Shown: positions 14,048 to 40,860 of the stretch, in pieces
Position numbering within the stretch: the stretch's first letter is position 1
How the letters are laid out: every line of letters starts with the position of its first letter
Origin: Candidatus Woesearchaeota archaeon
GTDB lineage: Archaea; Nanobdellota; Nanobdellia; Woesearchaeales; GW2011-AR4
Direction: 5' to 3'
Length of the DNA: 64,000 nucleotides
Assembly: GCA_016192985.1 (NCBI GenBank)
Contig: JACPTC010000017.1
Location: 1,182-65,181, forward strand
Program-made: the position numbers and the translations under genes
Notes under the pieces: model-generated
Databases searched by the model: none
Seen by the model: only the letters and a program-made list of their open reading frames with translations
Told to the model about the DNA's origin: nothing

Positions 14048-14049
14048 TT

Positions 14050-14433: not shown

Positions 14434-14435
14434 TT

Positions 14436-19554: not shown

Positions 19555-19570
19555 CTTAATCAATTAAAAA

Positions 19571-24183: not shown

Positions 24184-24189
24184 TTTTAT

Positions 24190-25179
24190 TTAACTTTTCA
24201 TTGCGCTAACATATGCACATTCAACTGTAAAGGATTTATCATCCGCGAGCGGATTATTCATTTTTAATTCCTTGAAAAGCTTAAGTGCAGACATTGTAAT
24301 CAATTCGTCTCTCCCTTTTTCTATCTCTGGGTTTGGCTCTTTGCCTCCAATTTCAGGCAAGATGCCTGCTTGCAGCCTTCTAACCCTTAAGAAATTCAAC
24401 CAGTCGCTATAAGTGACTTTTACCGGCAGATAGCGTATAGATGCACACTCCAAGCCAGCTGACTCCAAGGCGTTTAAGTAAGATTTTATATGTCTGGGCT
24501 TCGGAAATACAAGCCTGCGCTGCGCCGCCTCGGTTTTTACCCTATCCTCAATATTTTTGCTGTAAGACCTGAACTTGGGATCTTTACGCACAATATCAAG
24601 GGCTATGTCATGCACATACTCAATGGTGTCATCAATCATTAGTGCGCCGTCTGGCTTACCCTCTCTCACAAAATTTCCGGTTTGAAATATGAAATCCCCG
24701 CCTTTTTTCAGAGCAACCGAAATATCACAAAATGTTTCATTTATATCCGGAATGAGGTGGACAGTATTCGCAGATATAACATGGTCTACCACATCTTGCC
24801 CAACTACTTCAAATAAAGCGGCATATTTATCGCCTCTCCTCTCAAGTATAAAACACTCAACATTTGGCGGATCGCTCAAGATTTCGTAAGCTTTTCCCAG
24901 CCAGGAAGGAGAGTTGTCAACCAGCCACATTCTTATCTTCTTTTGCAAATATTTAAGCAAAAGCTGCGCCGATGTTCCGGTTCCAGCGCCAAAATCAACA
25001 ATGACATCTCCGCTTTTGATTCTCGGATCTGCAATAACTGCCAATTCGTGCATTATATCTTTTATCCAAGAAGAGTTGGCTACAGCCTCATGAAATGCAG
25101 TAGCCCCTTTGGAAGTCGGTTTATCAGGATGCCATGGCTTATTTATAATCTCACATCCTTTTTCTATTAATTTTGACAT
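24190..25179 (-). CDS. class I SAM-dependent methyltransferase
   Basis: Motif I VIVDFGAGTGTSAQ, with the post-I acidic residue in WLVDNS. The substrate is unknown. Confidence 0.65.
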   Translation of the reverse strand: MSKLIEKGCEIINKPWHPDKPTSKGATAFHEAVANSSWIKDIMHELAVIADPRIKSGDVIVDFGAGTGTSAQLLLKYLQKKIRMWLVDNSPSWLGKAYEILSDPPNVECFILERRGDKYAALFEVVGQDVVDHVISANTVHLIPDINETFCDISVALKKGGDFIFQTGNFVREGKPDGALMIDDTIEYVHDIALDIVRKDPKFRSYSKNIEDRVKTEAAQRRLVFPKPRHIKSYLNALESAGLECASIRYLPVKVTYSDWLNFLRVRRLQAGILPEIGGKEPNPEIEKGRDELITMSALKLFKELKMNNPLADDKSFTVECAYVSAMKS

Positions 25180-25242: not shown

Positions 25243-26358
25243 TTATGCTACAATCCCTTTGTCAATAAATTCTTTTATAGAGCCTTTGCTGTAGCCGATT
25301 GATGCAAGAATCTCTTTTGAGTTTTCGCCCAATTTAGGCGCCCTATTATAATTCATTTTTTTAAATGATGAAAAAATCATAGGCATTGCAACTTGTTTTA
25401 CACCATCAAGCTGAATAATCACCTTTCTCTTATTCAAATCCTTATCATTAACCACATCTTTAATCTTGCTGACTGGCTCGCAGCAAAAGTCATGTTTCTT
25501 GTTTAGTCTTACCCATTCTGTTGATGTCTTACTTTTGAAGATACTCTTCATTTCTTTCATAATTGAGCTGTCCATTTGCCTTTTAAGAAAATCTTTTCTG
25601 TTGAGCGCATTGCAAAATGCCTGCCAGAATTTTTGCTCTACTGCACCGAGGCTTACGTATCTCTTGTCTTTTGTCCTGTATACATTATAACAGGGTGTAT
25701 TGTTGGATGAAAGCAAGGTTTTTGCACCTCCGGCAATAGAATAATGTGCAATATGGATCCCAATCAACGAAAGAGCGCTGCTAAATATTGGCACATCAAT
25801 ATAATTTCCATTCCCGCTTTTTTCCCTGTAAAATAATGATGAGGCAATTGAGAAGGCTGCTGTAACCGCACAACTTGTATCAGCAATTTGTATGCATGGC
25901 ACATAAGGCTTAAGAGATAAAGCCTCAAGCAGTCCGCTTGAAGCTATGTAATTCAAATCATGGCCAGCCCTGTTTTTATATTTAGCGTATTGCCCATAGC
26001 CGGATATTGAGCAGTAGATTATTTTTGGATTTATTTTTCTAATATTCTTGTAGCCAATGCTCAATGAGTCGGCTTTCCCAGGCCTGAAGCTTTCTATAAT
26101 CACATCCGCCTTTTTTGCAAGCTTCATGAAAATTTCTTTTCCTTTGCTTTTTTTAAGGTCTATTGCTATGCTCTTTTTGTTTCTGTTTAATGCGGAAAAA
26201 TAAGTCTGCGTATTTCTGAATACAACACTTCTCATAAAGTCCCCATGCAAGCCCTCTATCTTAACCACCTCAGCTCCCAGATCAGCAAGAAACAAAGAGC
26301 ACATTGGACCTGGCAAAAGAGTTGTTAAATCCAGAACTCGTATGCCTTTTAATAGCAT
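25243..26358 (-). CDS. family III CoA-transferase (CaiB/BaiF/AMACR-like)
   Basis: LKGIRVLDLTTLLPGPMCSLFLADLGAEVVKIEGLHGDFMR is the family III N-terminal signature. I prefer the ATG at 26358, which is preceded by AGGTGG; the track start at 26367 is GTG. Confidence 0.8.
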   Translation of the reverse strand: MLLKGIRVLDLTTLLPGPMCSLFLADLGAEVVKIEGLHGDFMRSVVFRNTQTYFSALNRNKKSIAIDLKKSKGKEIFMKLAKKADVIIESFRPGKADSLSIGYKNIRKINPKIIYCSISGYGQYAKYKNRAGHDLNYIASSGLLEALSLKPYVPCIQIADTSCAVTAAFSIASSLFYREKSGNGNYIDVPIFSSALSLIGIHIAHYSIAGGAKTLLSSNNTPCYNVYRTKDKRYVSLGAVEQKFWQAFCNALNRKDFLKRQMDSSIMKEMKSIFKSKTSTEWVRLNKKHDFCCEPVSKIKDVVNDKDLNKRKVIIQLDGVKQVAMPMIFSSFKKMNYNRAPKLGENSKEILASIGYSKGSIKEFIDKGIVA

Positions 26359-26531
26359 ATTTCCCACCTTAATTTCCTTAATTTAAATTCTTGAAGATGT
26401 GCACTGTTGCCATAGCACCCACACCCCCAATATTATGTGTTAATCCATATTTTGGCTTTTTTACTTGTCTTTCTTCAGCATTGTTCCTCATTTGCTTGAC
26501 AATTTCATAAACCTGCGCGAGTCCAGTAGGA

Positions 26532-26672
26532 CTTATCGGATGGCCTTTTGCTTTTAATCCGCCGCTTGTGTTGACAGGAAGCTCTCCATTTAACTCAGTC
26601 ACGCCTTTCCGTATTAAGCCTGAACCTTCCCCCTGCCTGCAAAATCCAAGGTCCTCGTAAGAAATAATCTCT
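26532..26672. repeat. 141-bp tract 100% identical to 29127-29267 (the 3' parts of the two thiolase paralogs)
   Basis: Base-by-base comparison of the two regions. Identity ends exactly at the disruption site in both copies. Confidence 0.85.
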
Positions 26673-26979
26673 AAATAATCTCTAAGGGAGTGAAAGCATC
26701 GTGCACTTCTGCAATGTCAATATCTTCAGGGCAAATTCCTGCCTCTTTGTATGCATTCGCCGCAGCCATTCTTGTTGCCTCCAATGAAGTCATATCCTCT
26801 CTTTCAAAAGGGCCAAGGTAATCATTGGATTCACCGGAGCCAGCTATCTCCACACTTCCTTTTTCTTTTGATATTATCAAAGCTGCTGAGCCATTGCATG
26901 AAATGCTGCAGTCAAAAAGCCTTAACGGAGACGCTACGACAGGCGAACTTTTAATCTCTTCAAGTGAAACTTTCTTGTG

Positions 26980-27132
26980 ATAGAACCTTGCCTTTGGGTT
27001 AAAGTATGCGTTCTTGTGGTTTTTGTATGCGACTAAGGCAAAATCATCAGTTGTAGCGCCGTGCTTCATCATGTATTGCTGCGCCACCAAGGCATTCTGG
27101 GCAGGGAAGTTAAGCCCTTCTGTCTGCTCATA
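26980..27132. repeat. 153-bp tract identical, except for one mismatch (27001 vs 29530), to 29509-29661
   Basis: Direct comparison. The tract encodes the shared peptide YEQTEGLNFPAQNALVAQQYMMKHGATTDDFALVAYKNHKNAYFNPKARFY. A further 32-bp identical block lies at 26906-26937 and 29435-29466. Confidence 0.85.
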
Positions 27133-27521
27133 AATGCGTTCGCCGCCCATGAGGATTTCGTCCGTCACTTTCTTGCTTATATTTGCAACAATCTTATCAA
27201 AGGCAACAGCCAGCACATTATCATAGTTGCTGGATCTTTGTAATTTTACCGCTGTCCATAAGGCTGTGCCGCCGCCAGCGCAACCTGCAGGCAGAGCAAG
27301 TATTGGCATTTTTTTCTGAAAAAGGCTGCTGAGCATTGAAGCACTATGCTTTTGCCTTTCGCCATTGCTCGTTACTTCAATGCTTGAAACAAAAACTGCA
27401 TCAATCTCATTCATAGTCATATCAGCATCATTCAGCGCTTCCATTACAGATTCATAAGCCATGTGGTATGATGCATCCTCTTGTGTGCCAAATCTTGTCA
27501 TGCCAACTCCCTTGACAAATA

Positions 27522-28973
27522 TCATCTAATCACCTTTGAAAGAAGCTTTGTCATCTTTGACTTTACTTTGTCAATAGGCGTTATTTTCGGTCTGCCTTGC
27601 GTTATAAGCAATTTTTTCAATAGGACAAGCTGCTCAAACTGGTCAATATTCTCTTCTATTTCTGCCATAGGCTCAAATTTCATACTTTGCAGCTTTTTTA
27701 TTGCACAGCCGCCTAACGCAACCAGCCTTTCTTTTCCTTTTAGCATATCTTCTGTCAGCATAGAGCCTATGATCAAATTTAATTCCTCTCCCCTTAATCC
27801 TATCAGCTTAGAAGTCAAATTATAGAGCAGGTTTAAGCATGCAGGACAGCTCTTGCCATCTATCACCTTTATATCAGGATGCGGCGTGTCGTGAGGCACA
27901 GCTGGCAATATGCTGTATTTTAATGCATCCACTTCATTACCAACCACTTCTATATGCTTTGAATCAAGGCATTTGCCATAAGCATCAATATAAGGTGGAA
28001 TTTCAAGCAACGTTACTTCGCAAAAGATTGCATCGACAGCAGCAAAGTTTTTGCCAGCTAATACCAAATTTAAGAAAGCAGGCTCACCTGACGCAAGAGG
28101 GCCTTGCCCCTGCATAGCTTTGGTTGCATCGGCTATGGTAAACACATTAGGAATAACTTTTGCTAGTTTAGCTATAATCTTGTCAAAGCCTACATAATAC
28201 ATCTCCCGCTGCGTTTTTTCATCCGCAAACCTTGCTAAATTTTCCAAAGCGCCAGAAAATCCAAGCTGAAAATTTGTCTTCATAATAGGCGCATTTATGA
28301 CCTTTCTATTCAAAGCTTCCTTGAATATTTTAAATGAAAACCCTTCTGATTCAATTTCCTCAAAAGGGCCCTTAGATATATCAAAAAAATTTACTCCATT
28401 CTTTTTGCAAACCTCAAGAATGCCGGCTTTTGCAGCAGCATCGTTTACATCTGAGCCAATCAAGGCTTGCTCAGCTACAACAACATCTTCCTTTTTTACG
28501 CCAAGCTCAAATAAAACCTTAAGCAATGCATCAAAAAATTCAGGATCTGTGTTTACTGCTTGATATGGGTAAGCTGCAGCTATTATGCTCGGCTTTACAA
28601 GAACTTTGTCGTTTGGGCTTAGCTCAAATTTCAGCAAGCCAAGTGTTTCTTTTATTGCCTCATATACATCATACTTCACTTTTGCTATAGAAACAGCATC
28701 TTCAGTTTTTGCCTTTTCTTGAATGTAATTGTCTCCTAGTTTATAATCTTTCATTGTTTTTTTTGGCATTCTGTTGCCAAACTCATCCTGTAAAAGAATA
28801 ATGTTATAAGGTATGATTGGATGCATTGGAGATTGAATAGAAACTTTTGTAATTCCGACTACTTTCAGCTTAGAGCCTTTTTGCTTGGTAATTTCTCCTT
28901 TGCAATAAACACATTTCTCAACAGGATAAATCCACTTCTTGTTGCATCTATCACATATCCATCTTATTATCAT
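27522..28973 (-). CDS. fusion protein: N-terminal DUF35 (Zn ribbon plus OB fold) and C-terminal DUF362 domain
   Basis: N-terminus: [20 protein letters not shown], then an OB fold ([31 protein letters not shown]). C-terminus: [33 protein letters not shown] and [21 protein letters not shown]...[13 protein letters not shown] match the DUF362 pattern as I recall it. It overlaps both flanking thiolase ORFs by 4 bp. Confidence 0.65.
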
Positions 28974-30039
28974 GAGCCCACCTTCTTCAATATACTCACT
29001 GCTACTGTACTTCCAGCTCCGCCTATGTTTTGAGCCAAAGCATATCTTATATTGCTAATTTGCCTGCCGTCAGCATCATTCCTCATTTGCTTCACCAACT
29101 CATAAATCTGGCTAATGCCAGTAGCGCTTATCGGATGGCCTTTTGCTTTTAATCCGCCGCTTGTGTTGACAGGAAGCTCTCCATTTAACTCAGTCACGCC
29201 TTTCCGTATTAAGCCTGAACCTTCCCCCTGCCTGCAAAATCCAAGGTCCTCGTAAGAAATAATCTCTCTGCCTGCTTATAAGCCTCATTTGCAGCCAGCT
29301 TTGTAGCTTCCCATGAGGTCATATCTTCACTTTCAAAAGTCGAAAGTCTGTCAACAAACAACGAGGAGCCAACAAGTTCAATGTCAGTCTTGTCTTTTGT
29401 TACAACAGCCGCAGCAGCACCATTTACAGACAAGCTGCAGTCAAAAAGCCTTAACGGAGACGCTACAACAGGTGAGTTTTTTATTTGCTTAAGTGTAACC
29501 TCTTTTTTATAGAACCTTGCCTTTGGGTTGAAGTATGCGTTCTTGTGGTTTTTGTATGCGACTAAGGCAAAATCATCAGTTGTAGCGCCGTGCTTCATCA
29601 TGTATTGCTGCGCCACCAAGGCATTCTGGGCAGGGAAGTTAAGCCCTTCTGTCTGCTCATATACTCTTTCAGCAGCCATCATTATCTCATCAGTAATTTT
29701 CATAGAATTATTAGTCAGCAATCTTTCTACCCCAACAACAAGTATATTCTCATAATCTAGTTTGTTGGCTGTCCATAAAGCTGCACCGCCACCGCCACAA
29801 ACCGCTGCTGTAGTAATTATCGGAATCTTTTTTCTGAATATGCTGCTTATAATGGAAGCAAATCCTCGTTGCCTTTCTCCGCTGTTTTCTGTATCCACAA
29901 TTGAAGAAACAATAGCATCTATTTTATCAATTCCAAAATCCGCATCATCCAGAGCTTCTAAAGTCGCATTGTAAACAAGCTCTTGGCTTGTATCAAGCTG
30001 CGCTCCAAAATTAGTCATTCCAACTCCCTTAATATACAT
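28970..30039 (-). pseudogene. SCP-x-type thiolase paralog 2, interrupted by a roughly 55-nt deletion that removes the HDAF catalytic-His segment
   Basis: The ORFs 29209-30039 and 28970-29197 together form one thiolase. Compared with paralog 1, the sequence between ...AATCTCT (ends 29267) and CTGCCT... is missing, which shifts the frame. The N-terminal ORF ends in the out-of-frame peptide [19 protein letters not shown]. Confidence 0.7.
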
Positions 30040-30051
30040 AGTAGAACCACC

Positions 30052-30543
30052 TTACTTAGTGAATTTAGCTCTAAACTCAGTTTTGCTGACTATTGCCAGC
30101 ATTAGCAGAGCTTCTGCCACTAAGTTTTCTTTTACATATGCTTTTCCCTGCAGGATAGCTCCTTTTTCATCTTGTGCTATTAAACTTACCTCAAACCTAA
30201 TCTGATTATTGGGAAGTATCGGTGCAGTAAACTTGACTTCCTTTAGTCTGTAAGCCAGTATATCCTTTTCCTCATGATTTGGGATATTGCTTCTTACAAG
30301 CAAAGTCGCTGCTTGCCCTATACCTTCAACTGTCAAGGCACCAGGCATAATAGGAAAGCCAACAAAATGCCCCTTAAAGAAATCCTCTTTTCCACTTAAG
30401 TCTTTAATCGCGGTAATCTTGCCGTTGCCTAAGCTTGTGACTTTATCTATAAATAAAAATGGCTCATCATAGGGTATAATCTTTTTTATATCAGGCTTGT
30501 CTATTTCTCCCTTTTCTTTCATAAGTTCATTTATCTGGCTCAT
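30052..30543 (-). CDS. fabZ: FabZ-like 3-hydroxyacyl dehydratase (FabA/FabZ hotdog)
   Basis: IIPYDEPFLFIDKV...AIKDLSGKEDFFKGHFVGFPIMPGALTVEGIGQAA follows the FabZ pattern (PHRyPfLLvD...nE.fF.GHFP..PvMPGvL.iEa.aQ). Confidence 0.8.
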   Translation of the reverse strand: MSQINELMKEKGEIDKPDIKKIIPYDEPFLFIDKVTSLGNGKITAIKDLSGKEDFFKGHFVGFPIMPGALTVEGIGQAATLLVRSNIPNHEEKDILAYRLKEVKFTAPILPNNQIRFEVSLIAQDEKGAILQGKAYVKENLVAEALLMLAIVSKTEFRAKFTK

Positions 30544-30694: not shown

Positions 30695-32605
30695 ATGTTA
30701 AAAAGCAAAAAGGGAAAGCTAAATGTAAGTCTAACTCGAAAACTGATTGTAGACACAATAAACAAAGCCCTAAGTCCGGTTGAAGAAGCCTACGTTTTCT
30801 TTAAAAAATACGTATTAAGTGTAAAAGAAAAATTCCCGGCTTTTTACAAGTCCTTTGAAGGAATTATAAATCAACAAATAATGGCCCCAAGCAAAGAATT
30901 ATTTAAGTCTTCAAAAATAAGTGACATGGGTGGCTTTATCACTGCTAATGTGATAAAAAGACTTCCCCATATTGATGAATCTCATGTTGAAGAAATCCTG
31001 CATAATCCATCCAGTAAATCCTTTTTGGAAGTTCTTACCATGGGATTCGGGATAAATAAGGAGAAAGAAAAGAGCTTTACTGTTTTAGGCAATGGAGGCT
31101 TTAAGAGAATTTTGATCGCTAATAGGGGTGAGATAGCTCTTAGAGTCATAAGGGCTTGCAGGGAGTTAGGCATAGAAAGTGTTGTTATCTATTCTGAAGA
31201 GGAGAAAGATTCTCTTGCCGTAAAGTTTGCTGACAAGTCCTATAACATAGGCAAACCGAAAAACTACCTTCATATAAAGAGAATTGTAAAAATTGCAAAG
31301 CAAAGCGGCTGCGATGCAATCCATCCTGGCTATGGTTTCTTGGCAGAGAACCCAAAATTTGCCAAAATTTGTGAGAAAAAAGGGATAAAGTTTATAGGCC
31401 CTTCTTTCAAGATGATAAAAAAACTTGGCGATAAGGTAGATGCAAAAAAAGCTATGCTCAAAGCAAACATCCCTATTCTTGAAGGTTTGAAGGAAGACCT
31501 GAAGAGCAGCAGGCACGCTTTGAAGGTTGCAAGAAGAATAGGACTTCCTGTTATACTGAAAGCGTCTGCTGGCGGCGGCGGCAAAGGTATGAGGATTGTT
31601 GCTAATGAGGAAGAATTGTCTATGGCTTATGAAAGCGCAAAGAAAGAAGCATTGAACGCGTTTGGAGATGGCTCATTATATATGGAAAAATATCTTGAAG
31701 AACCTAGGCATATAGAGTTCCAGATACTTGCAGACAGATACGGAGATGTAATCCATTTGGGTGAAAGGGACTGCAGCGTGCAAAGAAGGCATCAAAAGCT
31801 GGTAGAAGAAGCGCCAAGCCCTGCTTTAACCAACGAGATGAGGGAAACAATGGGAAATGCCGCTGTAAATGCAATAAAAGCAATCGGATATGATGGAGCA
31901 GGCACAGTAGAATTTCTACTTGACAAAAACAGGAACTTCTATTTCATTGAGATGAACACAAGGATTCAGGTTGAACACGGCGTGACAGAAATGGTAACTA
32001 ATGTTGATTTAGTTAAAGAACAGATCAAGCTTGCAGAAGGTGCAAAGCTTGCTTACAAACAGGAAGATATCAAAATAGGTGGGCATGCAATTGAATGCAG
32101 GATTAATGCAGAGGACCCAAGCAGCAATTTTACACCATCCCCTGGAACAATTGTTAATTACTTGCCACCTGGAGGCCCTGGCATCAGGATAAGCAGCTCA
32201 GCACATGTTGGATACAAGATACTCCCCCAGTTTGATTCATTGATAGCTTTGCTTATCTGCTATGGAAGGACAAGGCACGAGGCAATTGCAAGAATGAAAA
32301 GAGCCCTAGACGAGTTCATAATAGAGGGAGTCAAAACAACCATACCTTTCCATAGAATTGTACTGGGCAAAAGGCAGTTTACGAGGGGAAATGTCACAAC
32401 CTCTTTCATAGAAAACAACAACATAATAGAGGAGCTTAAATACTTAAAGCCAAAGAAAGAGGCGCTTACAAAAGAGAAAAAGGTCATAATAGTAACAACA
32501 GCTGTTGCGCAATATCTTTCAAAGAAGAAATCCAGAATCAAAGTAAATCCATGGGTAATGGCTGCACGGCAGGAAGCAATGAATGAGGGTACTGTAGAGG
32601 AATAG
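30695..32605 (+). CDS. accC: biotin carboxylase (AccC/PycA-type ATP-grasp) with an unusual roughly 135-aa N-terminal extension
   Basis: From residue ~137: KRILIANRGEIALRVIRACRELGI... The glycine-rich loop is ASAGGGGKGMRIV, followed by EKYLEEPRHIEFQILAD and NTRIQVEHGVTE. An alternative internal start is M116 (31040). Confidence 0.9.
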   Translation: MLKSKKGKLNVSLTRKLIVDTINKALSPVEEAYVFFKKYVLSVKEKFPAFYKSFEGIINQQIMAPSKELFKSSKISDMGGFITANVIKRLPHIDESHVEEILHNPSSKSFLEVLTMGFGINKEKEKSFTVLGNGGFKRILIANRGEIALRVIRACRELGIESVVIYSEEEKDSLAVKFADKSYNIGKPKNYLHIKRIVKIAKQSGCDAIHPGYGFLAENPKFAKICEKKGIKFIGPSFKMIKKLGDKVDAKKAMLKANIPILEGLKEDLKSSRHALKVARRIGLPVILKASAGGGGKGMRIVANEEELSMAYESAKKEALNAFGDGSLYMEKYLEEPRHIEFQILADRYGDVIHLGERDCSVQRRHQKLVEEAPSPALTNEMRETMGNAAVNAIKAIGYDGAGTVEFLLDKNRNFYFIEMNTRIQVEHGVTEMVTNVDLVKEQIKLAEGAKLAYKQEDIKIGGHAIECRINAEDPSSNFTPSPGTIVNYLPPGGPGIRISSSAHVGYKILPQFDSLIALLICYGRTRHEAIARMKRALDEFIIEGVKTTIPFHRIVLGKRQFTRGNVTTSFIENNNIIEELKYLKPKKEALTKEKKVIIVTTAVAQYLSKKKSRIKVNPWVMAARQEAMNEGTVEE

Positions 32606-32637: not shown

Positions 32638-33360
32638 ATGAAATACACATTTTATCCTTTCAAATCTTTGACTTCAACTCAAGATAAAGCCAAAGAATTC
32701 TCCAAAAAAGCATCAAGCAGCATAGTTGTAATTGCAGATACACAAACAGAAGGAAGAGGCCGCTTTAAGAGAAAATGGCATTCTGCCAAAGGCGGCATAT
32801 GGATGTCAATATTGTTAATTCCAAGCAATATTGAAAAGTTGCAATACCTCACATTTATCGCAGCCATATCGGTAGTCAGATCAATAAAAAAAACTACAAA
32901 ATTAAAAACAAATATCAAATGGCCCAATGACGTTCATTACAAAGGCAAAAAACTGTGCGGCATTCTTACAGAAGGGATTTTTGGCAGAGAAAATTATGTA
33001 GTTGTTGGAATAGGATTAAACGTAAACCAAACAGAATTTTCTGATGATGTTAAGGATACAGCAACATCATTAAAGATAGTCAAAAAAAGAACAATTAATA
33101 TTGAAAAAATTAAAAAAACCCTAATTAGCGAATTTTTTATTTTATATGAAAAATACTATAATAAAAATAAACTAAAAGACATATCAAAAATCTGGAGAAA
33201 GCATTGCGACACATTAGGCAAAAATGTAACAATCATAACAAAAACAAAAATATTTACCGGAAAAGCAATTGGAATTGACGAAAACTGCAATCTATTGCTA
33301 AAACAAAAAAACAATGAAATAACAAGGATTGTGGAAGGGGACGTAAATGTAAGATATTAG
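32638..33360 (+). CDS. birA: biotin-protein ligase (BirA catalytic type, no N-terminal HTH)
   Basis: DTQTEGRGRFKRKWHSAKGGIWMSILL (the GRGRxGRxW motif) and KWPNDVHYKGKKLCGILTE. Confidence 0.85.
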   Translation: MKYTFYPFKSLTSTQDKAKEFSKKASSSIVVIADTQTEGRGRFKRKWHSAKGGIWMSILLIPSNIEKLQYLTFIAAISVVRSIKKTTKLKTNIKWPNDVHYKGKKLCGILTEGIFGRENYVVVGIGLNVNQTEFSDDVKDTATSLKIVKKRTINIEKIKKTLISEFFILYEKYYNKNKLKDISKIWRKHCDTLGKNVTIITKTKIFTGKAIGIDENCNLLLKQKNNEITRIVEGDVNVRY

Positions 33361-33460: not shown

Positions 33461-33688
33461 ATGGCAATTCTGGGAAGCATACCAATATTAAGAAAACTTG
33501 TCGATACAACATATGCAATTCTGATAGTCATTATACTGAGCGCACTAGTAGGCTTGATTCTTGCGTTTCCCGTGATGTGGCTATGGAACTATGTATTCGG
33601 CAGCTTCCACAAAATAAGCGTTTTTCAGGCATGGGCTTTGAACGTTTTGGCAGGTATTTTGTTCGGGCATAAAAACTCTGGAAAGTAA
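33461..33688 (+). CDS. small two-TM membrane protein, hypothetical
   Basis: Two hydrophobic helices (AILIVIILSALVGLILAFPVMWLW and AWALNVLAGILFG). I recognise no family. Confidence 0.4.
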   Translation: MAILGSIPILRKLVDTTYAILIVIILSALVGLILAFPVMWLWNYVFGSFHKISVFQAWALNVLAGILFGHKNSGK

Positions 33689-33689
33689 A

Positions 33690-34364
33690 CTACAGAATTT
33701 TATCCAAATCCAAGAACTTCTCAAAATTTTTTGCTAAACTGCCCAAATCCTTAGAAAAAGGCACAACTCCTGCCAGCTCCGCTTTGCTAAAATTTTGTAT
33801 CACTTTTTTATTGTCTTCTTCAATTTTACCTCCTTTATAATAATTTACTATCACTCCCTTTACTTTCACACCGTTTTGGTATAAGGCTCTCAAAGTCAAG
33901 CTTGTGTGGTTGATTGTCCCAAGACCGGACCTCGCTACAACAATCACTTCAGATTTTAAATCTTTTATCAAATCGAGAACCGAATAATGCCTTGTCAATG
34001 GAACAAGCAAACCGCCGGCGCCTTCTATAATAACATAATCAAACATTCTGCACAATTCTTCATAATGCGACCTTATCATCTTTGGTCTTACTTTCCTATT
34101 TTCCAGCTCAGCAGCCAAATGCGGTGAGGATGCAAATTTGAAGCTATAATCGTTGAACAGACACTCATTAGAAATTCCGCTTAATTTTTTAACTAATGCA
34201 AGATCCGGAGAAGCAATCCTTCCTTTCAATAGGTTGCCGCACTGCACAGGTTTATAAACTGCAACATTCTTTTTGTTATCGAGAAGAATTTTCGCAAGAC
34301 CACAGGCTATTACAGTCTTTCCAACTCCTGTGTCAGTGCCGGCTATAAAAATCCCTTTTCCCAT
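33690..34364 (-). CDS. bioD: dethiobiotin synthetase
   Basis: GIFIAGTDTGVGKTVIACGLAK (the GTdTgVGKT P-loop) and EGAGGLLVPL. Confidence 0.85.
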   Translation of the reverse strand: MGKGIFIAGTDTGVGKTVIACGLAKILLDNKKNVAVYKPVQCGNLLKGRIASPDLALVKKLSGISNECLFNDYSFKFASSPHLAAELENRKVRPKMIRSHYEELCRMFDYVIIEGAGGLLVPLTRHYSVLDLIKDLKSEVIVVARSGLGTINHTSLTLRALYQNGVKVKGVIVNYYKGGKIEEDNKKVIQNFSKAELAGVVPFSKDLGSLAKNFEKFLDLDKIL

Positions 34365-34409: not shown

Positions 34410-35378
34410 TCATTTTACAAACATTGGCATGAATTCGGTTGAGCCGAAAACCCCGTAAATCCCATTTTTTTTCAGCCATATCGCCCTTTTTAAATAGCCA
34501 AGCGCAGGTCCTAAAACATTTGAGGCCATTGTGGTTTCATCACCCAGCATAAATTTATGTGAGCTTATTTTCCCATCAAATGTTCTCCCTGTCAATCTCA
34601 TTGTTGTTGTCACCGGCTTTTTGGCGTGCCTTGTGTCCATTACACCACCAACCGAAACTTGGCTGAGCTTATCAACAATTCCGATTTTTTTTAGCAAAAT
34701 ATCGTCGGCATGTTCCATATCCCTAAACCTAAGAATTCCATTTGTTCTGTCCAGCAATTTTTCAATTTGCTCATTGCTCATTGCTCTTGCTTTTTTTAAA
34801 CTGTAACCCGGTAAGTTAGCTATATCCTCCCGTATGGTTCCTTTATACTCTTCCCAGTTCTCTATTCCAACGCCCCAGAAAATATCAACTTTGTTTATTT
34901 TTATAAAAGATTGCGCTGCAATTACGGCAGCGGCAGTCAACAAGCCGGGTGTTGCGCCTGTTCCTGTTATGTAAGCTGATTTTTTCTTCTTGAAGAAAGC
35001 ATGCATCTTAAACATGATTTTCATTGCCTGCGTTTTTTTCAATGGGTCAGAAAAAGCGCCTTCATAACCATTCTGTAAAAACCTTTTTGCAACAGACGGT
35101 ATAAACTCATTTGGAAGGTTCGGCAATGTAATTAAAATGCCGTCTATAATCCTTGATTTTTTAATTATCTCGCCTATGGCGTCAAATGATTTTTTTCCAA
35201 TACTGGCAACTGACTCGTTTTTTTTCAAATTGTAAACGTTCTCAGGCTTGATGCCTTTTTCATCTATAGCAAAACCACTGTTGTCGCACGCGGCAACTAT
35301 TCTGATTTCCTTTTTCTGCTCAATGATTCGAGCGGCAGCTTTTCCAAGACCGCCAGCCCCCAAAATCGCTATTTTCAT
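34410..35378 (-). CDS. Rossmann-fold NAD(P)-binding protein of unknown function in the bioD operon (candidate BioA substitute)
   Basis: MKIAILGAGGLGKAAARII is a GxGxxG motif. No aminotransferase or PLP features are present. It lies upstream of and co-oriented with bioD, and divergent from bioF. Confidence 0.5.
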   Translation of the reverse strand: MKIAILGAGGLGKAAARIIEQKKEIRIVAACDNSGFAIDEKGIKPENVYNLKKNESVASIGKKSFDAIGEIIKKSRIIDGILITLPNLPNEFIPSVAKRFLQNGYEGAFSDPLKKTQAMKIMFKMHAFFKKKKSAYITGTGATPGLLTAAAVIAAQSFIKINKVDIFWGVGIENWEEYKGTIREDIANLPGYSLKKARAMSNEQIEKLLDRTNGILRFRDMEHADDILLKKIGIVDKLSQVSVGGVMDTRHAKKPVTTTMRLTGRTFDGKISSHKFMLGDETTMASNVLGPALGYLKRAIWLKKNGIYGVFGSTEFMPMFVK

Positions 35379-35395
35379 ACTATATGGAAAAATTT

Positions 35396-35417
35396 ATGAA
35401 TATTTAAAAATATTCAT
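35396..35417. promoter_or_regulatory. palindromic bidirectional promoter/operator between the bioD operon and bioF (ATGAATATT-TAAA-AATATTCAT)
   Basis: A perfect 9-bp inverted repeat, 35396-35404 / 35409-35417. It contains TTTAAATA (minus strand, 35408-35401) 22 nt upstream of the ATG at 35378. TTTATGAA (35393-35400) lies 22 nt upstream of the bioF ATG at 35423. Confidence 0.5.
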
Positions 35418-35422
35418 TGCTT

Positions 35423-36556
35423 ATGAAAGAAAAACTGAAAGAATTGAAAAATAAAAATCTTTTTCGGGATTTCAGGACAATAACTGGTTCTTGCAGTAAT
35501 ACCTCAACATACAATGGCAAAGAATATATCATGCTGGCGTCAAACAACTATTTCGGTTTGAACACTAACCATAAGGTCATTGCGGCAGCTAAGAAATCAA
35601 TAGACAAATATGGCACAGGAAATGAAGCTTCTCGTCTTATTGTAAACCTTGATTTGCATGCAAAGCTTGAAAAAGAAATTGCGAGCTACAGAAAATGCAG
35701 CGCTGCAATGGTTTTTTCAAGCGGATACGCAGCTAACACAGGAATAATAAGCAGCATTGCTGGAAAAGGGGACATAATTCTTAGCGACCAGCTTAACCAT
35801 GCAAGCATAATAGACGGATGCAGGCTCAGTAAAGCAACAACCCATATCTACCAGCACTGCAATGTCGAACACTTAAAAACTATCCTAAAAAAAGTCAAAA
35901 AAAACAATAAGAAAATTTTGATTGTTACTGACACTGTTTTCAGTATGGATGGAGACATTGCACCGTTAAATCAAATAATTGAGTTAAAGGATAAATACAA
36001 TTTTATGCTTATGGTAGATGATGCCCATGCTATAGGGGTCTTAGACACAAACTTCAAGGAGATAGATATACATATGGGAACTTTGTCAAAGGCGCTCGCT
36101 TCACAAGGCGGCTATGTTGCTGGAAGCAAAGAGCTTATAGAATTCCTAAGAAATTTCTCAAGGCCATTCATTTACTCAACAGGCTTAGCGCCACCAAATG
36201 CTGCAGCCGCTTTGGCTGCACTGAAAATTCTAAGAAATGGAAAAAAACTAAGGAGAAAATTGCTCGATAATTCAAATTACATGCGGAGTAATCTTAATAA
36301 GCTGGGCTTTGACGCATTAGGGGAGCTTCAAATTATACCTTTAATAATAGGCGAAAACAAAAAGACAATGCAATTCCAGAAATCGCTTGAAATAGAAAGA
36401 ATTTTTGTTACTGGAATAAGGCCGCCAACAGTTCAAAATGCAAGACTGCGCATTTCTATAATGGCAACACATACAAGACAGCAATTGGACAAATCATTAA
36501 AGGCTTTCAATAAAATCGGCACTAAGATGGGATTAGTTCCTCATGCCCAAAGATAA
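35423..36556 (+). CDS. bioF: 8-amino-7-oxononanoate synthase
   Basis: Alpha-oxoamine synthase pattern: ...GTGNEASRLI..., DDAHAIGV, and the PLP lysine context GTLSKALASQGGYVAG. I prefer the ATG at 35423; the track start at 35417 is TTG. Confidence 0.85.
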   Translation: MKEKLKELKNKNLFRDFRTITGSCSNTSTYNGKEYIMLASNNYFGLNTNHKVIAAAKKSIDKYGTGNEASRLIVNLDLHAKLEKEIASYRKCSAAMVFSSGYAANTGIISSIAGKGDIILSDQLNHASIIDGCRLSKATTHIYQHCNVEHLKTILKKVKKNNKKILIVTDTVFSMDGDIAPLNQIIELKDKYNFMLMVDDAHAIGVLDTNFKEIDIHMGTLSKALASQGGYVAGSKELIEFLRNFSRPFIYSTGLAPPNAAAALAALKILRNGKKLRRKLLDNSNYMRSNLNKLGFDALGELQIIPLIIGENKKTMQFQKSLEIERIFVTGIRPPTVQNARLRISIMATHTRQQLDKSLKAFNKIGTKMGLVPHAQR

Positions 36557-37211
36557 CCTGCACGCCTCTGAGGCCCCTTATCATTTCATAGCATTCAATT
36601 ATCTTATCAGGGTTCCATAATATGCCAGGCAGGCAATTATATTTAAGATTTTCAGAAGAGTAACAAGCGTCGCCGGCAATAAAAATTCTTTTGCCGTTCA
36701 GGTTTATAAAAACGGATTGATGACCTTCTGTGTGCCCCGATGTAGGGATTATGATTATCTTGCCGTCACTGAACAAATCCAATCTGCCTTCTATAATCCT
36801 ATATTTTAAGTTCCCGTTAAAATTATCCTGATAAGCGAGTTTCTGATAAATCTTCGGACTTATTGCAGATTCATACTCTTTTTTTTGAATTATTATATCT
36901 GAGCCAATAAATGAGCTGTTATTTTCACAATGGTCAATATGCAAGTGGGTGTTTATAATAAAATCAATTTTTATGCCTCTTAAATATTTAATTACATCAG
37001 TTTCCAAAATTGGTTGGTAAAACTTCAGCCTTTTTCCCCAAGTCTCTTGAAAGTCTGATGAGAAACCTGTGTCAACAAGCACATTGCCTTTTTCATGTTT
37101 TACAAGAAAGCAAAATACAGGTATTTTAACTTTGTTTCCCATACCTCTTCCAAGAGTCACAAATCCCTTGTCACATTCCAAATACCCGTTCTTTATAATG
37201 TCCAACTCCAC
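36522..37211 (-). CDS. metallo-beta-lactamase-fold hydrolase (lactonase/esterase-like)
   Basis: The HxHxDH motif is INTHLHIDHC, with a later HTEGH. I chose the start GTG at 37211. The in-frame ATG at 37283 would put the N-terminus across the promoter and 5' end of the divergent methyltransferase gene. Confidence 0.7.
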   Translation of the reverse strand: MELDIIKNGYLECDKGFVTLGRGMGNKVKIPVFCFLVKHEKGNVLVDTGFSSDFQETWGKRLKFYQPILETDVIKYLRGIKIDFIINTHLHIDHCENNSSFIGSDIIIQKKEYESAISPKIYQKLAYQDNFNGNLKYRIIEGRLDLFSDGKIIIIPTSGHTEGHQSVFINLNGKRIFIAGDACYSSENLKYNCLPGILWNPDKIIECYEMIRGLRGVQVIFGHEELIPS

Positions 37212-37214
37212 GCT

Positions 37215-37232
37215 TGGTAAGATATTTAAATT
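37215..37232 (+). promoter_or_regulatory. BRE/TATA promoter element TGGTAAGATATTTAAAT(T) for the LCMT-like methyltransferase gene
   Basis: TTTAAATT lies 20 nt upstream of the ATG at 37253. The 17-mer TGGTAAGATATTTAAAT is identical to 50230-50246, upstream of ugd. Confidence 0.5.
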
Positions 37233-37252
37233 AAATAAAAACTTTATGGAAT

Positions 37253-37942
37253 ATGAAAGAGACAAAAATTTCAAATACAGCATCGCTCACAGCAGTGTGG
37301 CGCTATATGGGAAATGTGGATAGCATTTCAATCAAGGAAGTGCCACTTTACCAAAAATTGGTGGCATACACTCTAGGGTTACTCGACAAAGCGAGCGTAC
37401 GAACAATTACACAAAGGACAAAAATTATTGACTCATTGATATATAAAATAAAACCAAGAACAATTGTTGAGATAGGCGCCGGATATTCATCGAGGTCAAA
37501 GCGCTTTCCACAGATAAAATTCTATAATCTAGATTTGCCAGAAATAGCATATAACAAAAAAGACGTAGTGTCATTTGACATAAGCAAAGAATCTTTGGAA
37601 ATTGACGTAGGAAAAGCCTTGTTCATTGTTGAAGGAGTTGCAATGTACTTGAACGATAATGAAGTGATTAAACTGCTAAAAGAAATTAAAAAATACAAAG
37701 GCCATTTGATCATAGATTTTTTTGACAAGGAAAAGTCAACAAGGCAAAAGACAATAAAAGAGAATATTTACAAACTTATTTTCAAGCTATTCATAGGTAA
37801 GAACCATATTTTTGATTTTAGGATAGAAAATTTGGAATCGGGGAAAATGCTGCTGGAGAGATTCGGGTATAAAAACATAAAATATTATGATTACAATCTT
37901 GAAAAAACGCTTGACTGCTTATTTTATGCGGAATTCAATTGA
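37253..37942 (+). CDS. LCMT/TIGR00027-type SAM-dependent O-(carboxyl) methyltransferase
   Basis: [13 protein letters not shown] (tAl..A..Ra), [15 protein letters not shown] (LGaGlDtRa.R), [14 protein letters not shown] (.EvD.P.v...K) and [15 protein letters not shown] (.EGvl.YL) all fit the family pattern. Confidence 0.65.
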
Positions 37943-38918
37943 TTTGGAGATTTTCAGATTCTTTGAATGCTTTTCTCGTCCTTAACCCAAATAAATTTAA
38001 CATCTTCATGTCATCGTTAAACTCAGGGTTTGGTGTTGTGAGCAACTTGTCTCCAGCAAATATGGAGTTTGCCCCAGCCAAAAAACAGAGGGCTTGAGCT
38101 TCCTTACTCATTTGCAATCTCCCAGCCGACAGCCTCACCATAGATTTTGGCAGCATAATCCTTGCTGTGGCTATCATTCTTACCATCTCCCAGACTTGAA
38201 TAATGCCCCTATTCCCAAGAGGCGTCCCTTTTATTGGAACAAGCGCGTTTATAGGCACAGATTCCGGATGTGGGTGCAGATATGACAACGTAAGAAGCAT
38301 TTTTATCCTGTCTTTTACTGATTCCCCCATCCCAATAATGCCGCCACAGCAAACTGTTATTCCAGCTTTTCTTACATTTTCTAAAGTTCTCAAACGGTCT
38401 TGAAATGTTCTGGTAGTAATTATTCTCTCATAAAACTCCTCTGAAGTGTCTATATTGTGGTTGTAAGCGTAAAGGCCCGCTTCTTTGAGTCGTCTTGCTT
38501 GGCTTTCGGTCAGCATGCCAAGAGTGCAGCACACTTCCATTCCGAGATCATTCACAGCTTTAACCATTTCTAGTACATTCTCAAAATCATCATTGTCCTT
38601 TATCTCACGCCATGCTGCACCCATGCAAAATCTTGTAGAGCCATTCAATTTAGCATTTTTTGCAGACTCAACAACTTTTTCTATTGGCAACAATGACTCA
38701 ATTTTGATTCCTGTGCTATAGCGGGCAGCTTGAGGGCAATAAGCGCAATCTTCGCTACAAGCGCCTGTTTTTATTGACAATAAAGAGCTTAATTGAACCT
38801 CGCTTGGATCATGAAATTGCCTATGAACGGTCGCAGCCTTGTAAATCAATTCAAGCAAAGGCATGTTATAAATTTTAAGCGCTTCTTCCTCAGCCCAATC
38901 ATACCTTACAATTTGCAT
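37935..38918 (-). CDS. bioB: biotin synthase (radical SAM)
   Basis: [14 protein letters not shown] (CxxxCxxC), together with family length and further motifs (GGIIGMGES). Confidence 0.9.
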
Positions 38919-38947: not shown

Positions 38948-39337
38948 TCAGCCTATCACTACCAAAACATCCCCCTTACCGACATTGCCATCTTTCTTAA
39001 CTTTTATCTCTTTCACAACACCATCTCTTGGCGAAGTAATATCATTTTCCATCTTCATTGCCATCAAAGTAAATAAGCTTTGGCCTTGTTTTACTTCATC
39101 GCCTTCCTTTACCTTCACATCATAAACAATCCCAGGCAAGGGAGATGTTATCTCAATTTTTCCTACTTCTGTTGCATGCTTTTTATGCAGCCTCTCTACA
39201 GCTGACGGTTCAGCGTCTTTCTTTGTCTCAACTTCGTAAACATCACCTTCGCAGTGGACTAATATCTTGCCTTCTTCTGTTTCTTCTACAAATACCTTGT
39301 ATTCTTTACCGTCAACCTTAACAAAAAGCTCTTCCAT
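38948..39337 (-). CDS. accB: biotin carboxyl carrier protein (biotinyl/lipoyl domain)
   Basis: [41 protein letters not shown] contains the AMKM biotinylation motif. Confidence 0.85.
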
Positions 39338-39339
39338 GT

Positions 39340-40860
39340 CTACAAAGGCATGTTGCCATGCTTTTTAGCAGGCCTTTTTTCTCTTTTAGCAAGCATCATT
39401 TCAAGGCATTTAACCAAAGCGATCCTTGTATTTCTTGGCTCAATTATCATATCCACCTTGCCAAGCTTTGCAGCAACGTAAGGATTAAGGTATTTTTCAG
39501 CGTATTCCTTAACAATCTCATCTTTTGCTTTAGTATTTTTGCTTATTTCGTCCCTGTTGATTATACTGACAGCCTGCTCAGCACCCATAACTGCAATCTC
39601 GGCAGAAGGCCATGCGAGCACTTTGTCAAATCCCATCTCTTTTGATACAAGGGCAATATAAGCGCCGCCGTACGCTTTTCTCATAACAAGCGATATTTTT
39701 GGCACAATAGCTTCAGAATAAGCATAAATCACTTTTGCGCCATGCCTTATAATCCCATTATGCTCCTGCTCACTTCCTGGCAGATACCCTGTTACATCCA
39801 CAAGATTAATCAAGGGTATGTTAAAGCAGTCACAAAATCTCACAAATCTGGCAATCTTATCTGAGGAATTAATGTCTAAGCATCCTGCCAGCACTTTTGG
39901 CTGGTTAGCTACAATGCCTACAACATCCCCATTAAGTCGCGCAAATCCTACAACAATATTAGAGGCAAAATTGCCCTGAACTTCAAAAAACGATTTTTTG
40001 TCGAAAACTTCATTAACCACCTCTTTTATGTCATATGTTTTTTTAGGGTCTTCTGGAACAATATATTCGAGCCTCTTTGTGTCTCTCAATGCATTGTCAT
40101 TAGAGTTATGGGGAGGATTCTCCAGATTGTTCTGGGGAAGATAGGCAAGCAAGGCCTTAATCATGTCCATGCATTCTTTCTCATTGTCAGCCACGAAATG
40201 AGCCACACCGCTCTTCTCATGAGCAAAAGCGCCGCCAAGCCCTTCAAAGTCTATTGTCTCACCAGTTACCGTTTTAATAACTTCCGGCCCTGTAATGAAC
40301 ATGTGGCTAGTTTTCTTAACCATAAAAACAAAGTCTGTCAATGCAGGGCTATAAACAGCGATTCCTGCGCAAGGTCCGAGTATAGCAGATATCTGCGGTA
40401 TAATGCCTGATGACAATGTATTGAGCTGAAATATTCTGCCGCCTGTATCCAAGGCTTCTACACCTTCCTGTATTCTTGCGCCTCCTGAGTCTAGCAATCC
40501 AATTATTGGGCATCCTGTTTTTAAGGCAAGTTCTATCACATCAGCTATCTTTTTATTATGCATCTCACCCATTGAGCCACCCATAAAAGAGAAGTCTTGG
40601 GCATAAACATAAACAGGCCTTTTGTGTATTGTCCCATAGCCTACTATAACACCATCTCTGGAGCTCTTTTTTGCTCCTATCTCATTGCTTTGCAGCTCAG
40701 CAAAAGCATCAAGCTCTGTGAAAGAATCAGGATCAAGCAAATACCTCAAGCGCTCCTTGGCAGTTAGCTTTCCTTTCTTGTGTTGCAACTCAACAGCTTG
40801 CTTATCATCTTGCAATTCTTTAACCTTATCAAGAAATTCCTTCAGCTTATTGCTAGTCAT
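39340..40860 (-). CDS. pccB: acyl-CoA carboxylase carboxyltransferase subunit (PccB/AccD-type)
   Basis: HKKGKLTAKERLRYLLDPDSF..., FMGGSMGEMH and LLDSGGARIQEG fit the carboxyl_trans family. Confidence 0.85.
   Translation of the reverse strand: MTSNKLKEFLDKVKELQDDKQAVELQHKKGKLTAKERLRYLLDPDSFTELDAFAELQSNEIGAKKSSRDGVIVGYGTIHKRPVYVYAQDFSFMGGSMGEMHNKKIADVIELALKTGCPIIGLLDSGGARIQEGVEALDTGGRIFQLNTLSSGIIPQISAILGPCAGIAVYSPALTDFVFMVKKTSHMFITGPEVIKTVTGETIDFEGLGGAFAHEKSGVAHFVADNEKECMDMIKALLAYLPQNNLENPPHNSNDNALRDTKRLEYIVPEDPKKTYDIKEVVNEVFDKKSFFEVQGNFASNIVVGFARLNGDVVGIVANQPKVLAGCLDINSSDKIARFVRFCDCFNIPLINLVDVTGYLPGSEQEHNGIIRHGAKVIYAYSEAIVPKISLVMRKAYGGAYIALVSKEMGFDKVLAWPSAEIAVMGAEQAVSIINRDEISKNTKAKDEIVKEYAEKYLNPYVAAKLGKVDMIIEPRNTRIALVKCLEMMLAKREKRPAKKHGNMPL

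Follow-up and report, generated by a model that had tools for sequence, protein, structure and literature searches.

A metallo-beta-lactamase-fold hydrolase and an LCM-fold methyltransferase as candidate BioH and BioC analogues in a woesearchaeal biotin gene cassette

Results

Two genes that diverge from a shared spacer lie between bioF and bioB in a 64,000-nucleotide stretch of contig JACPTC010000017.1 of a Candidatus Woesearchaeota archaeon, the whole of which is referred to here as the window. One encodes a hydrolase of the metallo-beta-lactamase (MBL) fold and the other a short, putative carboxyl O-methyltransferase of the LCM fold. We propose that the two proteins are analogues of BioH and BioC that act on thioesters of coenzyme A (CoA), the elongation steps being provided by fatty-acid enzymes encoded next door that would work without acyl carrier protein (ACP). 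Based on the comparative evidence below, we put the probability of this reading at about 0.55. The broader claim, that the pair serves methyl-ester masking in the synthesis of pimelate or biotin, appears probable from the same sequence comparisons. The most far-reaching version is to us an even call: a complete ACP-independent, CoA-based pimelate route in DPANN archaea, in which an LCM-fold enzyme replaces BioC, a dizinc MBL protein is the esterase, an archaeal thiolase-type fatty-acid synthase elongates the chain and a six-gene cassette turns a carboxylase-bearing auxotroph into a prototroph.

The window comes from a contig of 131 kb in an assembly of 1.26 Mb (65 contigs, about 37% G+C, estimated completeness 77%). 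The closest homologues carry the labels Woesearchaeota, Nanoarchaeia or Nanoarchaeota, which places the organism among the DPANN archaea. The evidence on the pair is comparative throughout and draws on several sets of sequences. The order sample comprises 201 genomes of the same order as the window's genome. Seven genomes (G000 and G201-G206), defined by carrying the LCM gene, are called cassette genomes, and 11 related genomes in which acetyl-CoA carboxylase is present and bio genes are absent serve as the bio-less comparison set. Loci were taken from marine TARA and JGI metagenome contigs and from GTDB species genomes. Residue conservation was scored on 67 full-length MBL homologues and 33 LCM homologues.

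The pair belongs to a six-gene biotin cassette

The arrangement noticed in the sequence-only reading, with the pair placed exactly between bioF and bioB and overlapping both at the 3' ends, was borne out. The tail-to-tail overlap is 35 nt between bioF and the MBL gene (36522-36556) and 8 nt between the LCM gene and bioB (37935-37942). NCBIfam models back the identities of bioD, the BioU-type gene, bioF and bioB (Table 1). Linkage of the pair to bioF and bioB in other archaeal genomes had been set beforehand as a check, and it was passed strongly. The order bioD and BioU-type gene (both leftward), bioF (rightward), MBL gene (leftward), LCM gene (rightward) and bioB (leftward) recurs in every close relative with enough contig to see it (L001-L010, L012, L087, L088 and L090). 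In L004-L006 the cassette is intact even though the pair of genes for the carboxyltransferase and the biotin carboxyl carrier protein (BCCP) and the pair of birA and biotin carboxylase have swapped sides. The BioU-type gene is 69-79% identical in all cassette loci. In two relatives bioF and the MBL gene lie further apart, by an additional 0.7-1.2 kb (L010 8055-9271 and L012 6203-6974).

The boundaries of the cassette are given by relatives that lack it. An orthologue of the carboxyltransferase is found in 18 of the 201 genomes of the order at 62-73% identity, and eight bio-less relatives were compared at their carboxylase loci. The flanking synteny of DUF362 gene, thiolase, FabA-like gene, biotin carboxylase, birA, an open reading frame (ORF) of 75 codons, BCCP and carboxyltransferase is kept in five of these, with RadA next in three. 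In these five genomes the 75-aa ORF and the BCCP gene lie just 65-205 bp apart, and the window's six genes fill exactly that junction. Because they occupy the precise empty site of the bio-less relatives, bioD, bioU, bioF, the MBL gene, the LCM gene and bioB are a presence/absence cassette made of four late-step genes and the pair. The bio-less relatives keep the carboxylase and elongation genes, so that at this locus only the cassette sets the biotin producers apart.

The phyletic profile follows the same division. Among the 201 genomes of the order, the LCM gene and a true BioB each occur once, both in the window's genome. BioB, BioF and the MBL and LCM proteins are encoded in all seven cassette genomes and in none of the 11 carboxylase-positive bio-less relatives, and no orthologue of the MBL or LCM gene was found in any bio-less relative examined. 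One locus, L011, was considered as an exception to the linkage with bio genes. It comes from G205, which holds all four genes and has merely dispersed them over four contigs: the LCM gene adjoins riboflavin genes, the MBL gene lies between an aminotransferase and a glutamine synthetase gene, bioF stands beside the 75-aa ORF and bioB is on the fourth contig. We therefore rejected it as an exception. The retention of all four genes after linkage was lost argues for functional dependence rather than hitchhiking.

The spacer from which the pair diverges is also conserved. The sequence-only reading had described a shared AT-rich promoter region, and this description holds: the spacer is 41 bp long with 80% A+T and contains a core of about 30 nt, GAAAAGATATTTAAAT..AATAAAAA.CTTTTG, that is near-identical in eight related loci whose encoded proteins are 46-74% identical. 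The core and a spacing of about 40 bp are kept in L001, L004, L009, L010, L012, L087 and L088, and in L007 an insertion of about 150 bp enters the spacer and leaves the core beside the LCM gene. Judged from the alignment, this conservation points to tightly constrained, putative back-to-back promoters or a shared operator.

These observations bear on the view that the two genes are passengers unrelated to biotin, for example a lactonase that quenches quorum signals or detoxifies and a methyltransferase of small molecules, co-inherited by linkage only. Both NCBI and JGI annotate the MBL protein as an N-acyl homoserine lactone (AHL) lactonase, and remote homologues of both proteins do occur away from bio genes. 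The nearest MBL outgroup, P0105, has TRAP-transporter, short-chain dehydrogenase/reductase (SDR) and PrpD genes as neighbours; the nearest LCM outgroup, P0121, adjoins a serine beta-lactamase and an alkyl-sulfatase-like gene; and 74 LCM loci at a greater distance, from genomes of bacteria and methanogens, have no bio genes. Against passengers stand the genome that has lost the linkage and still retains the pair along with bioF and bioB, the lack of either orthologue in the bio-less relatives, the position and spacer that persist at 46-74% protein identity, and catalytic residues that are strictly conserved in both proteins. We regard simple hitchhiking as very unlikely.

The hydrolase is predicted to be a complete dizinc ester hydrolase

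The window's MBL gene had been read as an HxHxDH hydrolase with two possible starts. Its identity and the GTG start at 37211, which gives a protein of 229 aa, stood up: the equivalent sequence M-E-[FL]-x-I-I-K-N-G opens all 79 of 79 homologues. The longer, 253-aa form from the ATG at 37283 did not, and it would run into the start of the methyltransferase gene.

The protein matches Pfam Lactamase_B with 65.5 bits; among the NCBIfam models, those for the AttM and AiiA lactonases and for 4-pyridoxolactonase score best. When PDB sequences were searched with a clade profile, AiiA AHL lactonases were retrieved over the full length (1.8e-47), as was 4-pyridoxolactonase (2.8e-42). The AlphaFold2 model has a mean predicted local distance difference test score (pLDDT) of 96.1. 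With this model Foldseek found AhlX at a template modelling (TM) score of 0.92 (root-mean-square deviation 1.7 Å), AiiA at 0.82-0.84 and 4-pyridoxolactonase at 0.85. The fold is thus that of the AiiA-type enzymes.

The active site can be followed residue by residue. H104, H106, D108, H109, H169, D191, Y194 and H235 of AiiA align with H89, H91, D93, H94, H160, D181, Y184 and H223 of the MBL protein. H91, D93, H94, H160, D181, Y184 and H223 are kept in 67 of 67 homologues and H89 in 66 of 67. The protein therefore has both the dinuclear metal site (HxHxDH...H...D...H) and the counterpart of the catalytic Tyr194 of AiiA. Since the metal ligands and the catalytic Tyr of AiiA are conserved and the modelled fold is matched, the MBL protein is predicted to be a catalytically complete dizinc carboxylic-ester hydrolase of the lactone type.

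The clade stands apart from the named lactonases, to which it is 26-28% identical, and the MBL protein scores below the equivalog cut-offs of AttM (NF045700, 128.3 against 390 bits) and AiiA (NF045699, 106.3 against 375 bits). Because the identity is so low and the scores fall so far under the cut-offs, the sequence comparison indicates that none of the named lactonases is its orthologue. W58 and R61, in the motif TWG[KR]RL, are invariant in the clade; the loop aligns with AiiA residues 64-73 or thereabouts, where AiiA has no basic residue. From the alignment, a contact of this R61/W58 loop with an anion, such as the CoA phosphates, is possible. The alpha/beta-hydrolase fold and the Ser-His-Asp triad of BioH are absent from the protein, which has the MBL fold. 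As far as sequence can tell, the MBL protein could work like BioH, yet would do so from outside every known esterase family for that step.

A fold so close to that of lactonases raises the question of whether the pair belongs to biotin synthesis by a different chemistry. The MBL protein might be a true lactonase that removes a lactone by-product of SAM (S-adenosylmethionine) use, or the pair might carry out a modification or repair connected with BioB or with the single-turnover BioU. The structural match to AhlX (TM 0.92), the presence of 4-pyridoxolactonase among the best matches and a cassette that includes the SAM-consuming BioB all speak for such a role, and co-inheritance links the pair with biotin without singling out a step. 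The chemistry from BioF through BioU and BioD to BioB, however, has no known lactone intermediate or by-product. Such a role would also leave the carboxyl-methyltransferase residues of the LCM protein without a function and the source of pimelate unexplained, given that BioC, BioH and BioW are absent. We hold it to be quite unlikely.

The methyltransferase retains the residues of LCM carboxyl methyltransferases

The LCM gene had been assigned to the LCMT/TIGR00027 type. The LCM part of this assignment stood, as PF04072 matched with 26 bits against a cut-off of 22.3, over residues 48-106 only. TIGR00027 (COG3315) gave 36.5 bits over residues 121-211 only and did not reach its cut-off of 93.55. 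Nor is the protein a member of the BioC family, since TIGR02072 does not match it. The AlphaFold2 model has a pLDDT of 91.8.

The clade is isolated. In an exhaustive hidden Markov model search of 1.84 billion cluster representatives it consisted of two full-length clusters at 50% identity, with the next hits at E of 3e-11 or higher, and a clade-only profile (A1) retrieved nothing meaningful from the PDB sequences. All 10 of the 10 nearest remote relatives are PF04072 members (E 1e-10 to 1e-42). A joint alignment with them retains the motifs R..ID, GAGxxxR, (E/L)D.P and EGVxMYL, and the joint profile (A3) found ML2640c (3.2e-19), Rv0731c (2.4e-17), LCMT1 (9e-11) and also PPM1 among the PDB sequences.

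ML2640c and Rv0731c are small-molecule carboxyl methyltransferases. In ML2640c the carboxylate of the substrate is gripped by Thr20 and Tyr194, activity is lost in the T20V/Y194F double mutant, and SAM is bound by Arg28, Arg90, Asp135, Asp164 and Glu189 (PMC10193983). After allowing for an offset of +3 between the chain index and the numbering of that paper, which we checked on ten residues of the alignment, Thr20 and Tyr194 align with T9 and Y132 of the LCM protein, and Arg28, Arg90, Ala113/Gly115, Asp135, Asp164 and Glu189 with R17, R55, G75/G77, D94, D109 and E127. T9, R17, R55, G75/G77, D94, E127 and Y132 are kept in 32-33 of 33 homologues. Position 109 is D, E or N in all homologues but one, which has V. 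The LCM protein thus shares with the OPCMT-like enzymes of the ML2640c type both the SAM contacts and the Thr/Tyr carboxylate clamp. Because the SAM-contacting and carboxylate-fixing residues are conserved, carboxyl O-methylation is a well-supported prediction for its chemistry. Compared with ML2640c, the LCM protein is shorter by about 80 residues and has a smaller N-terminal helical domain; in the model, this reduction fits a smaller substrate.

Canonical early genes are missing and an ACP-free elongation set is near

In the seven cassette genomes, no ORF reached the cut-off of the BioC, BioH or BioW models, while the control genomes behaved as expected. The best BioC score in the seven was 72.5 bits against a cut-off of 184.95. 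A PP-binding (ACP) domain is absent from five of the seven, the window's genome included. With ACP, BioC, BioH and BioW all absent, a CoA-based route would be required.

Genes that could serve such a route surround the cassette (Table 1). The block of FabA-like dehydratase, thiolase, DUF362 protein, thiolase, FabG and methyltransferase-SDR adjoins the cassette in L087 and L090, and part of the elongation block is also found in bio-less relatives. Three acyl-CoA carboxylase subunits surround the cassette, and this carboxylase is likely both the source of malonyl-CoA and the client for biotin. An archaeal CoA-based fatty-acid synthase made of ketothiolase, ketoacyl-CoA reductase, dehydratase and enoyl-CoA reductase has been reconstituted experimentally (bioRxiv 10.1101/2024.07.05.601840), and Woesearchaeota with FabG, FabI and FabZ were noted earlier (PMC10936187). 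Since such a synthase has been reconstituted and a similar gene set lies next door, ACP-free elongation of a masked malonyl primer by these neighbouring genes is plausible by analogy.

Within this set, the class I methyltransferase at 24190-25179 had been named as an alternative BioC candidate, a suggestion that the comparison did not support. The idea is that this enzyme is the real BioC analogue and that the LCM protein has another role. It sits among elongation genes, is present in six of the seven cassette genomes and has a weak match to the BioC model (TIGR02072, 20 bits). That match is generic, however, as these genomes encode many class I methyltransferases with better scores. The gene and FabG (23449-25179) are separate ORFs here and are colinear with methyltransferase-SDR fusions of 570-635 aa in relatives (G015, G201, G205, G206 and L090, the last at 13307-15019), an arrangement that presumably recalls the methyltransferase-like/ketoreductase layout of megasynthases. 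It also occurs in the bio-less G015, inside a fatty-acid cluster, and was not found in the cassette-bearing G204. Because of the colinearity with SDR fusions, the presence in G015 and the failure to find it in G204, we disfavour this gene and rejected it as the better BioC candidate. That it is the true BioC analogue seems to us highly improbable.

Discussion

A proposed route to pimeloyl-CoA

If nothing separated their reactions, a carboxyl methyltransferase and a hydrolase of esters encoded in the same biosynthetic cassette would make a futile cycle; intervening steps are just what the protecting-group design of BioC and BioH provides, as summarised in PMC6138646. In the route that we propose, the adjoining acyl-CoA carboxylase would supply malonyl-CoA, and the LCM enzyme would transfer a methyl group from SAM to the free carboxyl of malonyl-CoA or of a near malonyl thioester, giving a product that resembles an ordinary short acyl primer. 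Thiolase-type condensation, FabG-type reduction, dehydration of the FabA/MaoC type and SDR-type enoyl reduction would then extend this primer through two C2 rounds to pimeloyl-CoA methyl ester. The AiiA-type dizinc MBL enzyme would strip the methyl group to yield pimeloyl-CoA for BioF, after which BioU, BioD and BioB would complete biotin. The suggestion of the sequence-only reading that the pair supplies methylation and demethylation on CoA thioesters is in this way supported by the linkage, the phyletic profile, the catalytic residues and the lack of BioC, BioH, BioW and ACP. We infer that CoA esters would be the substrates of both enzymes and that the neighbouring elongation enzymes would be recruited.

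In E. coli, the genes for BioC and BioH are the only biotin-specific ones of pimelate synthesis and the enzymes of fatty-acid synthesis do the rest. The proposed route would follow the same logic, in that SAM-dependent methylation disguises a malonyl thioester, two C2 rounds follow and an esterase unmasks the product for BioF. As in E. coli, two biotin-specific early genes would suffice, and here both travel with bioF, bioD and bioB. Unlike in E. coli, the pair lies outside the BioC (TIGR02072) and BioH (TIGR01738) families. The carrier would have to be CoA because ACP is absent, and elongation would be archaeal and thiolase-based rather than type II fatty-acid synthesis.

The esterase step has repeatedly been filled by unrelated enzymes, namely BioG, BioK, BioJ, BioV, BtsA and the archaeal EstN1, sometimes within bio clusters (PMC6138646). 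Unlike all of these, the candidate esterase here has a dinuclear-zinc MBL fold. It shares the fold (TM 0.82-0.92), metal ligands and catalytic Tyr of the AiiA, AhlX and AttM lactonases and of 4-pyridoxolactonase, and differs from AiiA, AhlX and AttM in its low identity, in the clade-specific W58 and R61 and in an archaeal biotin context rather than one of quorum quenching. The LCM protein is likewise similar to ML2640c, Rv0731c, MnMT4 and LCMT1/PPM1 in its LCM motifs, SAM contacts and Thr/Tyr carboxylate clamp. Unlike the OPCMT-like enzymes and LCMT1, the members of its isolated clade have 225-229 aa against about 300-334 and a reduced N-terminal helical domain, and the presumed substrate is a small polar thioester as opposed to a steroid acid or a protein C-terminus.

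Evidence that weighs against the proposal

Several points count against BioH/BioC analogues working on CoA thioesters. Every pimeloyl methyl esterase known so far has the alpha/beta-hydrolase fold and a Ser-His-Asp triad (PMC6138646), and the closest characterised relatives of the MBL protein are lactonases rather than methyl esterases. The assignment of the LCM protein depends on weak model scores (the 26 bits of Pfam and the sub-cut-off TIGR00027 match), and a Foldseek search with the modelled LCM protein yielded nothing beyond generic class I O-methyltransferases, at a TM score of about 0.5. The twin thiolases that flank the DUF362 gene are short here, with 284 and 276 aa where their counterparts in L087 and L090 have 367-378 aa, and seemingly lack the C-terminal domain; they are probably frameshift or assembly artefacts of the metagenome-assembled genome. 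All the genomes compared are of this kind, the present one being 77% complete, and the absence claims are to that extent provisional. Thiolase-based routes could in principle also make pimeloyl-CoA from glutaryl-CoA without any masking, and a family III CoA-transferase is encoded nearby.

The OPCMT-like LCM enzymes that have been characterised act on free acids instead of thioesters (PMC10193983), and the acceptor of the LCM protein could be a free dicarboxylate. This leads to a rival that keeps the masking logic and changes the substrates or the timing: the LCM enzyme would methylate a free dicarboxylate such as malonate or glutarate, which is then activated to the CoA ester, or the ester would persist into later steps and the MBL enzyme would cleave the methyl ester of KAPA (7-keto-8-aminopelargonic acid), dethiobiotin or biotin in place of that of pimeloyl-CoA. 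The family III CoA-transferase of the neighbouring cluster resembles succinate-glutarate CoA-transferase (2.7e-46), and the cassette and phyletic evidence fits this rival equally well. The CoA-transferase is missing from the equivalent L090 cluster, however, and hence is not cassette-linked. The cassette holds no dedicated CoA ligase, and characterised systems remove the ester ahead of BioF. We consider such changes of substrate or timing unlikely, and BioC- and BioH-like action on CoA thioesters remains our preferred reading.

Implications for archaeal biotin synthesis

The complete archaeal biotin pathway has been stated to be unknown, with bioC, bioH and bioW unannotated in most lineages (PMC6138646). 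For this archaeal pimelate gap the cassette names two concrete candidate genes. In the literature that we searched, neither an MBL-fold pimeloyl methyl esterase nor an LCM-fold substitute for BioC was described, and there was no account of biotin synthesis in Woesearchaeota or Nanobdellota. What would be new are the enzymes, the carrier and the host lineage, in a pathway whose logic is known.

If the proposal is true, a new fold would be added to an esterase step that is already polyphyletic, and the methyltransferase step would have its first replacement from outside the BioC family, by an LCM-fold enzyme. The methyl-ester disguise would be seen to work on CoA thioesters with archaeal thiolase-based fatty-acid machinery. 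DPANN archaea are usually seen as vitamin-dependent symbionts; some of these genome-reduced organisms would then make their own biotin for acyl-CoA carboxylase. An O-methyltransferase specific for malonyl-CoA, together with its esterase, would also be useful for the engineered production of odd-chain diacids and biotin.

Neighbouring genes

The features of the window that bear on the cassette and its surroundings are collected in Table 1.

Table 1. Positions of the cassette genes, the divergent spacer and neighbouring genes in the window.
Feature	Positions	Strand	Remarks
SDR, like dienoyl-CoA/enoyl reductases	18745-19563		
MaoC dehydratase	19571-19987	-	57 bits
Thiolase	20300-21412		
HMG-CoA synthase	21414-22445		
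FabG	23449-24183	-	
Class I methyltransferase	24190-25179	-	
CoA-transferase III	25243-26367		
Twin thiolases flanking DUF362 gene	26671-27525 and 29209-30039	-	
DUF362 protein	27522-28973		
FabA-like dehydratase	30052-30543		
Biotin carboxylase	30695-32605	+	
birA	32638-33360	+	
Conserved hydrophobic 75-aa ORF	33461-33688	+	Left boundary marker of the cassette insertion point
bioD (dethiobiotin synthase)	33690-34364	-	TIGR00347, 154.8 bits against a cut-off of 83.3; first cassette gene
BioU-type gene replacing bioA	34410-35378	-	NF047886, E 1e-117 over full length; 392.8 bits, below the equivalog cut-off of 600
bioF (8-amino-7-oxononanoate synthase)	35417-36556	+	TIGR00858, E 8.6e-120; 399.8 bits, just below the cut-off of 426
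AiiA-type dinuclear-zinc MBL hydrolase, 229 aa, GTG start	36522-37211	-	Proposed pimeloyl-CoA methyl ester esterase (BioH analogue)
Divergent spacer	37212-37252	.	41 bp; putative promoter with back-to-back TATA-like boxes
Short LCM-fold (PF04072/TIGR00027-like) carboxyl O-methyltransferase, 229 aa	37253-37942	+	Proposed malonyl-CoA O-methyltransferase (BioC analogue)
bioB (biotin synthase)	37935-38918	-	TIGR00433, 408.7 bits against a cut-off of 225; last cassette gene
BCCP of acyl-CoA carboxylase	38948-39337	-	Pfam Biotin_lipoyl; right cassette boundary
Carboxyltransferase of acyl-CoA carboxylase	39340-40860	-	Pfam Carboxyl_trans, 594 bits

Two assignments among the elongation genes were tried and dropped. 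The ORF at 19571-19987 was considered as the DUF35 partner that is usual beside thiolase and HMG-CoA synthase, and it turned out to be the MaoC-type dehydratase. A DUF35 N-terminus for the DUF362 protein found no Pfam support.

The 75-aa ORF at the left boundary of the cassette has no Pfam match and is 54-76% identical beside birA in biotin-producing and bio-less relatives; one idea is that it encodes a small membrane protein acting alongside biotin uptake or ligation. In most relatives a 4HBT-type thioesterase gene lies between birA and this ORF (L001 3782-4180, L004 10017-10418 and L087 13810-14247). It is absent between 33360 and 33461 of the window, and tblastn found no copy in the assembly. 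The biotin carboxylase has 636 aa, and Biotin_carb_N begins only at residue 136; the N-terminal extension of about 135 aa has no Pfam match, and the proteins of relatives have a similar length of 638-639 aa.

A gene for GpsA, the bacterial-type glycerol-3-phosphate dehydrogenase, adjoins two genes for PlsC-type acyltransferases at positions 5102-7372 of contig C49 of the window's genome and at 16815-19070 of L090. In combination with the ACP-free genes of fatty-acid synthesis, they suggest an ability of these DPANN archaea to make fatty-acyl ester lipids.

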